Positions 4,249-52,864 of a DNA stretch of 52,895 nt are shown here, piece after piece. The notes beneath the pieces were generated by a model that had not been told where the DNA came from, searched no databases, and saw only the letters and a program-made list of their open reading frames with translations. A program made the translations under genes and the position numbers. Origin of the DNA: Escherichia phage LF82-10; sequence record PV660453; one strand, written 5' to 3'. Numbering within the stretch: position 1 is the first letter of the stretch; each line of letters starts with the position of its first letter.

Positions 4249-5375
4249 AAATGACCACTAAACAACGCTATGATAGCGCACCAATCAAGGCACGATTCGA
4301 TTCAAACGGATATCTTCATGATGAGCCAATCATCGCGCGAATCGGCATTCAATCGTACATGAAACCAGATGGAACCATGCAGCGTGAATTTCGCCCGGCT
4401 AGCGAGGTATTCAGCGAGAAGTCAATGAAGTCTTTTCAAGGGATGCCGATTGTTGAAGGTCACAAGGAGATCACCGTTAAGAACGCGCGAGGTGAGGTTG
4501 TTGGCGCGGTGAGCGGAGCGGCGCGCCGTGACGGAATCGGCTTGCTGTGCCCGATCGTAATTCACGATGGTGAATCAATCGAAAGCGCCAAACGAGGCGA
4601 TGCTGCTGAATTATCCGTAGGCTACAAAACAAACGATATTCATCGCGCCGGGTGGGGCAACGTGGTTACTGGTGAGTACGTATTCAAAGACGATGCGGAA
4701 ATGATGGAGAAGATTTTCCCCAGCGGAACCACGATGAGTGACGAATGGGAAGAGTTCGACGTGCTTCAAACAAACATCGTGCCCAACCACATCGCGAAGG
4801 TTCACAAAGGCCGCGCCGGAATCGCTCGTTTAAACCTTGACGGCTCCGAGGAAATCAAGTACGATTCAAGCGTTGACAATCAACCATCAAAGGAAAATGT
4901 TATGACCGTTAAAATTAAGATCGACTCCGCAGAAGTGGAAGTAACACAGGATGTGGCAAACCACATCGAAGCGCTGAAGGCAACCGCAACGGCAGCCAAA
5001 ACAAAGGCTGATACTCTGGAAGCAGAGCGCGACTCACTGAAAGTTAAGGTTGACGGCCTCCCGGCACTGATTGAAGCCGCGATCGCCGAAGCGAAAACAA
5101 AAGCCGATGCAGAAAACGAAATCAAAACTTTCGCCACTGAAATTGGCGTTAAGTGTGACGGCCTGGATAACAAAGCGATTAAAGTTGCAGTTATCAAAGA
5201 GGTGTTAGGTATCGACGCAGCAGAGAAAAGCGATGCTTATATTGATCAGTCATTTGAAATCGCGCGCGATTCTGATAAGATGGCGGCTAATCGCGTTAAA
5301 ATCTCCGGCTCTAACGGCAAGGAAGACGGCGCTGATACTGGCATCCCTGATGCTCAGGCTCGTTTCCGCAAGTAA
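4245..5375 (+). CDS. capsid scaffolding protein (possibly protease-scaffold)
   Basis: 376 aa; C-terminal Ala/Lys/Glu-rich coiled-coil-like region (EALKATATAAKTKADTLEAERDSLKVKV); position between portal/MuF and capsid genes. Confidence 0.5.
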   Translation: MKMTTKQRYDSAPIKARFDSNGYLHDEPIIARIGIQSYMKPDGTMQREFRPASEVFSEKSMKSFQGMPIVEGHKEITVKNARGEVVGAVSGAARRDGIGLLCPIVIHDGESIESAKRGDAAELSVGYKTNDIHRAGWGNVVTGEYVFKDDAEMMEKIFPSGTTMSDEWEEFDVLQTNIVPNHIAKVHKGRAGIARLNLDGSEEIKYDSSVDNQPSKENVMTVKIKIDSAEVEVTQDVANHIEALKATATAAKTKADTLEAERDSLKVKVDGLPALIEAAIAEAKTKADAENEIKTFATEIGVKCDGLDNKAIKVAVIKEVLGIDAAEKSDAYIDQSFEIARDSDKMAANRVKISGSNGKEDGADTGIPDAQARFRK

Positions 5376-13590: not shown

Positions 13591-14337
13591 ATGTCACCAG
13601 CATTTGAGAACGCACTAGCCAGTTTATACCCTGGCGAAATCATCACATTGATAGAGGTTGACGGCACCAAGTTTGGCGCGCAGGTCTACCGCTTCCACGG
13701 CGAAAACATCGCCTTTACTCCTGAAGAGATTCTTGCGGCTACTCAGCCGGGCGGAAGTCTTCAGCCGAAAACAATCACGTTCCAGGGTAACGAATACGGC
13801 GCGCGCCCGTTCGGGATTTCTGGCGTTAACTTCAACGGCAACGGCAAGGCAGGAAAGGTCACGCTCACGCTGTCAAACATTGATAGCCAGGTATCGGCGC
13901 TTATCCGCTCGTATAACGGGATGATGCAAGCGAAGGTCACTATCTGGATAACTCAGAAAGATTTGCTTGCCGACGATGGCACCGTTTCGCCAGGTGACTT
14001 CAGAAAGCTTGTGTACTTCATCGAGCGACCAAATTTTGTGGATCAGAACGTGGCGCGGTTCGAGCTTACCAGCCCATACGATATGGATGGCATCATGATC
14101 CCGGCGCGAATCACTCAGAGCGTTTGCTATTGGGCGCAGCGCGGTTGGTATCGCTCAGGTAAGGGTTGCAGCTACAACGGCAACCGATATTTCGATAAAG
14201 ACAACAATCCGACAGACGACCCAAGCCAGGACGTTTGCGCAGGAACAGCAACGGCGTGCAAGCTTCGCTTCGGCTCAGATCAGGAACTTGATTTCGGCGG
14301 TTGCGCAGTGGCTTCACTTGACAGAAGGAATCAATGA
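13591..14337 (+). CDS. minor tail protein (lambda gpL-like)
   Basis: 248 aa; C-terminal four-Cys cluster (C..C..C..C) as in gpL-type proteins; synteny. Confidence 0.7.
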   Translation: MSPAFENALASLYPGEIITLIEVDGTKFGAQVYRFHGENIAFTPEEILAATQPGGSLQPKTITFQGNEYGARPFGISGVNFNGNGKAGKVTLTLSNIDSQVSALIRSYNGMMQAKVTIWITQKDLLADDGTVSPGDFRKLVYFIERPNFVDQNVARFELTSPYDMDGIMIPARITQSVCYWAQRGWYRSGKGCSYNGNRYFDKDNNPTDDPSQDVCAGTATACKLRFGSDQELDFGGCAVASLDRRNQ

Positions 14338-51511: not shown

Positions 51512-51745
51512 ATGTTCGGACTGAGTGAGCCGCACTGGAACATAGTTAAGAGCCAGGCGCGAAAGCTGAATGAAGCGGTTAAAGCAATGCCGGAGAAAGA
51601 TCGCAAAAATGACCGCCTGATGATTCAGGTTATCGACAAGCATCACCAGCCGATCGCCACCATCATTGAGCGCTTGAAATTCACTTGGACGGCTGGATAT
51701 TTAGCCGGGCGCGTGGGAAATAAAACTAACGGAGATTATGAGTAA
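51512..51745 (+). CDS. hypothetical protein
   Basis: 77 aa. Confidence 0.4.
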   Translation: MFGLSEPHWNIVKSQARKLNEAVKAMPEKDRKNDRLMIQVIDKHHQPIATIIERLKFTWTAGYLAGRVGNKTNGDYE

Positions 51746-51927
51746 TGGCAGGATTTGACAGCACGAAAAAAGACGCTACGCAAGAAGAGTGGAAGGAACA
51801 GCTTGATTGCATCGTCGAACTAAACGGCTACAACCCTGATTTCATCCCTGATTCATGGCTTGATGCATATGATGGCGGCGCTGAAGTGGCTGATTTCTTT
51901 TACGATAACTATGACTCGGAGGAATAA
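51745..51927 (+). CDS. highly acidic small protein
   Basis: 60 aa, ~30% Asp/Glu with aromatic residues; TAATG coupling. Confidence 0.4.
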   Translation: MAGFDSTKKDATQEEWKEQLDCIVELNGYNPDFIPDSWLDAYDGGAEVADFFYDNYDSEE

Positions 51928-52133
51928 TGTTTAAGCATCTGCCAAAGAAAGGCGAAATCATTCGCTGTGATTCAGTAGTTGGAGCCGCGCCGTTTATGGT
52001 TGGCGTTGAGTACACCGTTGAACATGTTGATCGCAAAGTTGGTCACATCTACGTTTACGGTGACGAAGGCAACCTCGAGGCGATCGACTACCCGCAAGAC
52101 GCTGTACACGGAAAGTTTTCAAAAGTTGATTGA
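51927..52133 (+). CDS. hypothetical protein
   Basis: 68 aa; TAATG coupling. Confidence 0.4.
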   Translation: MFKHLPKKGEIIRCDSVVGAAPFMVGVEYTVEHVDRKVGHIYVYGDEGNLEAIDYPQDAVHGKFSKVD

Positions 52134-52297
52134 CGACACCTTCGCTGAGTGGTAAATTAAAAAGCGTAGACAGAAGAGGCGCTTAGAGCGCAACGGGCAT
52201 CACGTTTGATGCAACTTAGTTTACAGCGTCATTGATGGCGCTTTCATTCGGTGCATAGTGGTAAGCACGCCGTAGACCCGTAAGCGGCACAAATTCA

Positions 52298-52385
52298 GGA
52301 AGGTTGGCAGAGTGGACGATCGCGCACGGTTGCTAACCGTCAAGCCGGAAACGGCTCAAGGGTTCGAATCCCTTACCTTCCACCA
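52298..52385 (+). tRNA. type II tRNA, probably tRNA-Ser (anticodon GCU)
   Basis: perfect 7-bp acceptor stem GGAAGGT/ACCTTCC, discriminator A and encoded CCA; T-arm AAGGG-TTCGAAT-CCCTT; long variable arm GCCG-GAAA-CGGC; anticodon loop TTGCTAA; one C-C mismatch at base of anticodon stem. Confidence 0.7.
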
Positions 52386-52400
52386 ATCAAAGAGGTTTGC

Positions 52401-52580
52401 ATGTTTGATGTTAAACTCACTATCTTGTTAATGGGGCGCTCATGCGCATCATGCAAGCAACACTTCGAGTGCACCGTTGAGGCGGAAACATCCGAAGATG
52501 CCGTGTCAAAGGCAAAGGCAATGGCGGGAGCCGATCCCACTACTCACAAGTTTTTAGTTAACTACGTAAGGAAAAAGTAA
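52401..52580 (+). CDS. hypothetical Cys-containing small protein
   Basis: 59 aa; SD AGAGG; below ORF-track cut-off. Confidence 0.3.
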   Translation: MFDVKLTILLMGRSCASCKQHFECTVEAETSEDAVSKAKAMAGADPTTHKFLVNYVRKK

Positions 52581-52581
52581 A

Positions 52582-52815
52582 ATGCTGAATTCAATTTTGT
52601 TTATCGTCCTGGGTGTGATTATTGGCGTTATCGTCGTTGTTGCGTGGGCTGGCCTGTGGTCGCGAAAGCTACTGGCAAAGAACCAATTCGCCTCAGCGCG
52701 CTTCGATACGAAATCAAAAGAATGGCGCATTTGCGGCAAGTACGCAAAGATCGCACAGGAGTTGGTAGACATTCGCGAAGGACGAAAGCCTGGCGCGATT
52801 AAGTACATCGACTGA
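52582..52815 (+). CDS. small membrane protein
   Basis: 77 aa; N-terminal TM segment LFIVLGVIIGVIVVVAWAGLW; followed by terminator 52820-52843. Confidence 0.45.
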   Translation: MLNSILFIVLGVIIGVIVVVAWAGLWSRKLLAKNQFASARFDTKSKEWRICGKYAKIAQELVDIREGRKPGAIKYID

Positions 52816-52819
52816 TAAA

Positions 52820-52843
52820 CAACCCGCTTCGGCGGGTTTTTTT
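52820..52843 (+). terminator. intrinsic terminator at end of rightward accessory operon
   Basis: AACCCGCTTCGGCGGG then TTTTTTT. Confidence 0.6.
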
Positions 52844-52855
52844 GCGTCTGCAATC

Positions 52856-52864
52856 TGGTATAAT
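52856..52864 (+). promoter_or_regulatory. extended -10 promoter (TGGTATAAT) for terminase operon
   Basis: follows terminator 52820-52843; precedes SD and the ATG at position 1. Confidence 0.5.

Follow-up and report, generated by a model that had tools for sequence, protein, structure and literature searches.

Small stable RNAs that are co-transcribed with tRNAs include the species 1 and 2 (band C/D) RNAs of phage T4 and 3'ETS-leuZ of Escherichia coli. RybB and OmrA/B are enterobacterial trans-acting small RNAs with a 5' seed, and the translational operator of E. coli thrS mimics the anticodon arm of tRNA-Thr. Among T1-like phages single tRNAs are known, for example the tRNA-Arg of the Rtp-like phage MSK (PMC8421802). 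We analysed the 52,895-nt sequence of Escherichia phage LF82-10 (PV660453; the whole stretch is called the window below), in which a tRNA-Ser(GCU) stands behind a leader of ~160 nt. About 133 nt of that leader (52165-52297) appear to form an RNA that belongs to a well-supported structured family, spread across Drexlerviridae and undescribed in the sources we searched. A sequence-only reading of the window had made the leader part of a tRNA unit and held that 52137-52297 encodes nothing recognisable. Neither view survived: the leader is an older, family-wide element behind which the tRNA is a lineage-specific newcomer, and the interval holds the conserved structured RNA together with a promoter just ahead of it (52130-52158). 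The same reading had proposed that the leader may be a small RNA, and this is strongly supported, as far as sequence evidence reaches, by its promoter, conservation, covariation and strand-specific pairing.

Sensitive BLAST with the leader alone matched an unannotated intergenic region of phage IME347 (Badaguanvirus) that lacks a tRNA. Through the family of the upstream open reading frame (ORF) ORF68, phages T1, JMPW2, Shfl1, SA30RD, 50EP and Ec_L1 were found to share a gap of 160-185 nt in the same place, alignable with the leader. A protein-anchored locus search with ORF68 returned NBD2 only. An exact scan of IMG/VR for the long motif returned NBD2 and IME347 only, and looser patterns were required. 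Scans of IMG/VR with two degenerate motifs gave 28 and 78 matching stretches, and a promoter-plus-motif pattern extracted 76 distinct sequences, eight of which were judged chance matches. A covariance model (CM) built from six leader sequences matched in all long-form lineages (E = 1e-44 to 1e-8). The carriers are Tunavirus (T1), Badaguanvirus, SRT8, Vilniusvirus, Nouzillyvirus and Eclunavirus, together with Citrobacter phage HCF1, Klebsiella RCIP0096-type and Henu7/Samwise-type phages, Tlsvirus, Hanrivervirus and Veterinaerplatzvirus; a shortened form occurs in Webervirus (339 records). In every Drexlerviridae genus sampled the element occupies the same place, with a few small ORFs between it and the downstream terS; most carriers have no tRNA, and none of the phage records inspected annotates it. 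Searching 185,579 bacterial species genomes with the long-form pattern gave 58 matches, which look like chance because the covariance model confirmed none of them. Rfam 15 gave no match at E up to 10 for the leaders of the window, T1, 50EP, Ec_L1 and IME347, and no description of the leader was found in the literature searched, a search that did not include the T1 genome paper.

The evidence for an RNA fold is comparative. The leader is better conserved than its flanking ORFs, with identities of 85-95% versus 59-84% between the window and NBD2; the tRNA reaches 92%, and the few leader differences among Vilniusvirus phages fall as compensatory pairs in hairpins. When the 5' module was aligned with MAFFT alone, misaligned rows included, hairpins P1 and P2 had 80.9% of their cells paired versus 65.6% in shuffled alignments (a level reached in 0/500 shuffles), with a covariation score of 0.435 versus 0.198 shuffled and no more than 0.146 in slid controls. 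The CM alignment of 22 long-form sequences had 96% of cells paired, a figure inflated because that alignment was fitted to the model, and 16/20 pairs had changed on both sides; its score was 0.514 versus 0.168 shuffled and <=0.05 in slid controls, and all five measures beat 500/500 shuffles. RNAalifold independently predicted P1, P2 and P4. MAFFT lost the register of P4 across lineages, and this hairpin was tabulated by a script anchored on CGUAA and from the CM alignment: pairing is kept with at least 11 different 5-bp stems, and in the CM alignment 100% of P4 cells are paired, with 3/5 pairs changed on both sides. Counting the P1 and P2 pairs of 18 sequences by strand gave 161 Watson-Crick, 9 G.U and 0 A.C. 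Because G.U pairs are present and A.C absent, the + strand RNA is the selected species, and not duplex DNA or the other strand.

The features of the locus are collected in Table 1. The promoter is near-consensus, with 9/12 hexamer matches plus a TG upstream of the -10, and its -35 hexamer contains the TGA stop codon of ORF68. Every lineage has TTGAC and a -10 hexamer, the latter 5-6 nt ahead of the CGU motif. The ORF list shows no plausible ORF within 52134-52297. Transcription is predicted to start at the 5' motif or no more than 1-2 nt from it, and the family consensus of the motif is CGU-NN-AC, 3-4 nt, (A)GAG(G). Hairpin stems differ widely between lineages: P1 occurs as GCGC/GCGC, GCUC/GAGC, GCCC/GGGU, GCCAC/GUGGU, GUGU/ACAC, CAGC/GCUG and CCAUC/GAUGG; P2, for example, as GCAGCA/UGCUGC in NBD2, GUGAGA/UCUCAC in T1 and GCGGUU/AGCCGC in 50EP; and P3 as GUGC/GCAC, GGGC/GCCC, GUUGC/GCAAC and AGGC/GCCU. 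The P3 loop is D-loop-like in the clade of the window, and its sequence is not kept family-wide. P2b is lineage-specific, cleanly missing from IME347 and replaced elsewhere by other inserts. The tail adjoins the 5' end of the tRNA in the window and the Shine-Dalgarno sequence of the next ORF in phages without a tRNA. Direct reading shows no U tract or terminator hairpin at the 3' end of the window's leader, where ACAAAUUCA and the tRNA come after P4.

Table 1. Features of the leader, the tRNA and the downstream genes (window coordinates)
Feature	Position	Strand	Basis
Sigma-70 promoter: -35 TTGACG (52130-52135), 17-nt spacer, TG (52150-52151), -10 TAAATT (52153-52158)	52130-52158	+	Promoter scan
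5' motif CGUAGAC-AGAA-GAGG, single-stranded	52165-52179	+	Invariant alignment columns; single occurrence in window
Hairpin P1: GCGC (UUAGA) GCGC	52179-52191	+	Stem variants across family
Joint AACGG (AACG in most lineages)	52192-52196	+	Conserved in alignments
Hairpin P2: GCAUCA (CGUU) UGAUGC	52197-52212	+	6/6 pairs changed on both sides
Hairpin P2b: AGCGUCA (UUGA) UGGCGCU, one U.G pair	52225-52242	+	Vilniusvirus group
Hairpin P3: GUGC (AUAGUGGUAA) GCAC	52251-52268	+	Compensatory changes
Hairpin P4: GCCGU (AGACCCGUAA) GCGGC, 5-bp stem, loop end always CGUAA	52269-52288	+	Stem table, CM alignment, RNAalifold
Tail ACAAAUUCA (family CAAC-N-AUUCA)	52289-52297	+	Conserved
tRNA-Ser(GCU), type II, encoded CCA, A73, mismatches A12.C23 and C27.C43	52298-52385	+	ARAGORN, Rfam, annotation in PV660454 and relatives
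Shine-Dalgarno AAGAGG (52390-52395) and ORF59 (52401-52580), small CxxC protein, phrog_2919	52390-52580	+	792 phage records
ORF77, hydrophobic N-terminal stretch, Pfam DUF7299	52582-52815	+	ORF list, Pfam
Intrinsic terminator AACCCGCUUCGGCGGGUU and U run	52821-52845	+	Terminator scan; T1 terminator annotated at same position

The leader varies in form at its 3' side. Webervirus keeps the promoter, the 5' motif, P1 and one GC-rich hairpin and lacks P3, P4 and the CGUAA loop; its GC-rich hairpin was flagged as terminator-like, with UUUUAUU after it in 9/21 distinct variants. P4 of Hanrivervirus and the Henu7-type phages has a GC stem of 8-9 bp whose loop, 18-20 nt long, still ends in CCGUAAGA, and U5-6 come next; this form was judged by eye, the loop limit of the terminator scanner being 8 nt. 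The terminator-like last hairpin stands directly ahead of the next ORF's Shine-Dalgarno sequence in Hanrivervirus (L101:835-880) and in the Henu7 type (L046 ~13750-13795). A T1-like contig (L055, 50,414 bp) has a leader at 4733-4859 that scores 123 bits by CM versus ~157 for its peers; P2 and P4 are broken and changes are scattered in the next ORF, so this is either a decaying copy or a product of sequencing errors. Within the promoter spacer (window 52140-52152), CTGA-NN-GG(T/G) is kept in all lineages, including where it is non-coding, and may be a binding site for a regulator. Long-range pairings and pseudoknots were also considered and dropped, as they lacked covariation: 5' CGU with AACG, AACG with the CGUAA loop, AGAC with GUCU (in Webervirus), the tail with AGAGG, and a kiss between the P3 and P4 loops; for 5' CGU-AACG, AGAC-GUCU and tail-AGAGG this was judged from the lineage sequences.

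Genuine tRNA genes have entered this locus in three genera. The tRNA-Ser is confined to the Vilniusvirus group. In an ESCO41-like Nouzillyvirus contig (L090:1198-1275), a tRNA-Arg(UCU) separates the AUUCA tail from the CxxC ORF, and another occupies the same junction in Veterinaerplatzvirus vB_EcoS-2005III (L098:808-885). These two tRNA-Arg genes agree at 73/78 positions and bear no relation to the tRNA-Ser, and the other loci scanned by ARAGORN had no tRNA. All insertions sit exactly between the leader tail and the Shine-Dalgarno sequence of the next ORF, and their sequences point to at least two independent acquisitions in one slot. This slot is the only sizeable non-coding, strongly transcribed stretch of a tightly packed operon, and a tRNA may simply exploit it as a transcribed place that tolerates insertion.

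Taking these results as a whole, the explanation that we consider best, and hold with moderate confidence, is that the leader is an early, abundant structured RNA that works in its own right and is freed by RNase P where a tRNA uses the slot. Host RNA polymerase would make an early transcript running through the leader, the tRNA, ORF59, ORF77 and the terminator; an RNase P cut at the 5' end of the tRNA (G52298) would then release a discrete leader RNA of ~133 nt, and this small RNA would bind a protein or pair through its conserved 5' end. Early and abundant synthesis is implied because the leader has its own near-consensus promoter. A stand-alone RNA product seems most likely, ahead of a switch acting on the adjacent ORF, and besides the promoter three observations favour it: the most conserved part is the single-stranded 5' end, as in seed-type small RNAs; conservation remains high in the three genera where a tRNA and RNase P part the leader from the ribosome-binding site; and the last hairpin is terminator-like in other lineages. 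With its own promoter and a conserved single-stranded 5' end, the leader has two traits of trans-acting small RNAs with a 5' seed.

Several points weigh against this explanation. Beside the inflated pairing fraction of the CM alignment, the minimum free energy z-score of the leader as a single sequence is only -1.12. A search of the phage for targets of the conserved 5' end returned the element itself or 7-mers at chance level only. The leader's start of transcription, its release by RNase P and its stability are predicted. T1-type phages have no terminator-like feature after P4, and their tail runs into the Shine-Dalgarno sequence, as in a 5' untranslated region (UTR) with a regulatory role. 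A functional link in cis is possible because the leader always co-occurs with the CxxC ORF, and the two halves of the leader may have different jobs, because Webervirus lacks P3, P4 and the CGUAA loop.

In the strongest competitor, possible and yet distinctly less probable, the leader is a cis-acting 5' UTR that serves as a translational operator or attenuator for the CxxC ORF and the membrane ORF behind it. A bound protein or an alternative fold could occlude the Shine-Dalgarno sequence ~9 nt past P4 and the tail, and in some lineages P4 or P2 would be the terminator that attenuates transcription. Besides the constant company of the CxxC ORF, the tail is constant in length and sequence and directly adjoins the Shine-Dalgarno sequence in all tRNA-less phages, the last hairpin is terminator-like in Webervirus, Hanrivervirus and the Henu7 type, and the RCIP0096-type tail CCUCU could pair with the 5' AGAGG. 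The insertions count against this idea: in three genera a tRNA of 78-88 nt parts the leader from the Shine-Dalgarno sequence and RNase P would sever the two, yet the leader is still 85-95% identical. Moreover, a different ORF (orf57-like) follows the leader in T1, IME347, L025 and the Henu7 type, no conserved alternative antiterminator pairing appeared among the candidates considered, and there was no match to an Rfam riboswitch.

Two further RNA-level accounts are each improbable. In the first, the leader would resemble HK022 put or lambda nut as an RNA for processive antitermination: its promoter-proximal hairpins would alter RNA polymerase and let it pass the untranslated tRNA and the terminator at 52821 to reach terS and the late genes. 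A strong promoter does stand directly ahead of the hairpins, and a strong terminator and the packaging genes come just after the module; however, terS appears to have an extended -10 promoter of its own past the terminator (by eye), no boxA-like sequence and no Rfam match were found, and, going by nut and put, RNase P cleavage at the tRNA is expected to untether the RNA from the polymerase. In the second, equally a long shot, phages across the family would use the leader as an RNA decoy that mimics the anticodon arm of a tRNA. CGUAA at the end of the P4 loop equals positions 34-38 of E. coli tRNA-Thr(CGU) thrW (anticodon CGU, A37, A38; loop UUCGUAA), and all long forms combine a 5-bp stem with the terminal CGUAA; in the clade of the window, P4 comes right after a D-arm-like hairpin. 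The loops, however, measure 8-10 nt instead of 7 and mostly have C in place of U33, and Webervirus lacks P4. If a decoy, the early abundant RNA would capture a host protein that recognises anticodon loops, such as threonyl-tRNA synthetase, a defence anticodon nuclease or a modification enzyme, and the repeated landing of real tRNA genes directly behind the leader would be no accident.

A DNA-level element (pac site, replication origin or operator) in place of an RNA is very improbable. Such a site would suit a conserved non-coding stretch that is present once and lies ~0.7 kb ahead of terS, and there are repeated words: the octamer CCGUAGAC occurs once in the window, in P4, its 7-nt core CGUAGAC is also the start of the 5' motif (52165-52171), and NBD2 carries the full octamer at both places. 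Against this, compensatory changes keep four hairpins paired, nine G.U pairs with no A.C would be unexpected of a duplex-DNA site, and the leader is anchored 5-6 nt past the -10 hexamer. Hardly credible at all is an inert spacer or a set of decaying tRNA remnants ahead of a tRNA kept for codon supplementation: the D-loop-like P3 loop AUAGUGGUAA followed by a 5-bp hairpin loosely resembles a D arm and an anticodon arm, but neither ARAGORN nor the Rfam tRNA model finds a tRNA there, with E values as high as 10 allowed on 141 nt, purifying selection and covariation are family-wide and the latter already largely refutes the idea, AGY usage is not elevated, and most leader carriers are without any tRNA.

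The tRNA-Ser itself is real but ordinary, an already annotated member of a known family. ARAGORN placed it as the sole tRNA of the 52.9-kb window, with anticodon gct at tRNA position 35, and the Rfam tRNA model (RF00005) scored it at 44.9 bits against a gathering score of 29, so the single type II tRNA-Ser(GCU) of the sequence-only reading was upheld by the tRNA searches. Its description of the molecule was accurate too: the acceptor stem GGAAGGU/ACCUUCC is fully paired, CCA is encoded, the T-arm is canonical (GGGUUCGAAUCCC), and the C-C mismatch is present as C27.C43 at the top of the anticodon stem, all by direct reading, while the 14-nt insertion AGCCGGAAACGGCU in the variable region (Rfam tRNA model) marks the long variable arm. 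A second non-standard pair, A12.C23, lies in the D stem (NC line of the Rfam model match). The 3' end ...ACCUUCC-A-CCA (52370-52385) gives A73 as discriminator, as in NBD2, KLB19 and HazelMika. Bacterial tRNA-Ser usually has G73, and A73 is a key identity base of E. coli tRNA-Leu and tRNA-Tyr; judged by the G73 rule, A73 is unusual for a tRNA-Ser.

The window is 100% identical to Escherichia phages LF82-11/12/19/40, where GenBank annotates a tRNA-Ser at the same spot. The next relatives, at ~82% identity, are the Vilniusvirus phages NBD2, KLB19 and HazelMika (Drexlerviridae, T1-like), with the same tRNA annotated. Pair 7-66 is U-A in the window and A-U in NBD2, and pair 5-68 is G-C in the window and G.U in NBD2; because of such compensatory stem changes among Vilniusvirus relatives, the tRNA-Ser appears to be a functional gene under selection. 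In the NBD2 copy all pairs are standard (50.6 bits with the Rfam tRNA model), so both mismatches are peculiar to the LF82 isolates. Compared by blastn with all complete E. coli genomes (5,426 genomes), the tRNA-Ser had no close match, and it is thus not a recent host copy.

Compensation for AGC/AGU codon usage had been put forward as a purpose of the tRNA. A greedy set of ORFs that spans 91% of the window has AGC at 17.7 and AGU at 5.2 per 1000 codons, together 22.9, and AGY makes up 34.6% of its Ser codons. The corresponding values for E. coli K-12 are about 25 per 1000 and about 43% of Ser codons. Because the phage's AGY usage is not above these values, codon compensation is unsupported, and the benefit of the tRNA-Ser is unexplained by AGY codon demand.

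The tRNA does not stand at the end of the operon, where it had been placed, since ORF59, ORF77 and the terminator come after it; that terminator is the true end of the transcription unit. ORF59 is the constant downstream partner of the leader and has a conserved MGRxCxxC motif. Its sequence weakly matched the metal-binding domain of the copper ATPase ATP7B in the PDB (E = 0.043), and its single-sequence AlphaFold model (pLDDT 69, mediocre; beta-beta-alpha-beta) had no significant fold match. The T1 counterpart of ORF77, orf55, is annotated with a single transmembrane domain. The neighbouring proteins matched PHROG and Pfam families of unknown function only. The terminator stem-loop AACCCGCTTCGGCGGGTT is followed by a T run, and a perfect extended -10, TGGTATAAT, with no clear -35, lies at 52856-52864, just ahead of the Shine-Dalgarno sequence for terS (window start). 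Because this extended -10 comes after the terminator, terS appears by eye to have its own promoter. Farther upstream, ORF60 (51745-51927) has no counterpart in NBD2, KLB19 and HazelMika, where the ORF77 homologue adjoins the ORF68 homologue; ORF60 is an indel between otherwise collinear genomes.

The leader family spans hundreds of sequenced genomes, among them classic T1, phages of the BASEL collection and Klebsiella therapy candidates. Should the leader act in trans or as a decoy, a whole family of much-used model phages would share an early factor for host takeover or against defence; should it regulate in cis, it would control two genes of unknown function that are universally conserved as a pair and lie just before the packaging genes. 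The leader slot also explains the constant location of lone tRNAs in Drexlerviridae.

Compared with described phage tRNAs (the singles of T1-like phages and the sets of T4 and T5), the tRNA-Ser of the window is likewise a cloverleaf, presumably transcribed by host polymerase within a phage operon, and it differs in its A73, its two mismatched pairs, the lack of any sign of AGY demand and a slot that holds Arg-UCU in other genera. Apparent likenesses of the leader to CRISPR repeats (I-E, I-F), 16S rRNA helix 45 and the tRNA-Tyr loop are short and lineage-specific and were set aside. With HK022 put, lambda nut and the lambda PR' 6S leader it shares the arrangement of a structured RNA with a strong promoter before it and terminators and packaging or late genes after it; no sequence or model match to them and no boxA were found, and the tRNA insertion speaks against its having to stay tethered. 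P4 resembles the thrS operator in its 5-bp stem, its loop end CGUAA and, in tRNA-less phages, its place just upstream of a Shine-Dalgarno sequence. Unlike that operator, its loop has 8-10 nt and usually C at position 33, so that the likeness covers 5 nt only and P4 would be a predicted mimic. The leader is like T4 species 1 and 2 and 3'ETS-leuZ in being a structured non-tRNA RNA on a tRNA transcript that would be freed by tRNA-processing nucleases and could act in trans, and unlike them in having its own promoter, in mostly lacking a tRNA in relatives and in showing no sequence relationship. It differs from RybB and OmrA/B in having no terminator after the last hairpin in the window and T1, and at ~133 nt with five hairpins it is larger than is typical. 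Like those small RNAs, it has its own sigma-70 promoter and a single-stranded extreme 5' end that is its most conserved part, with hairpins after it, and in Webervirus, Hanrivervirus and the Henu7 type the likeness extends to a U run past the last hairpin.

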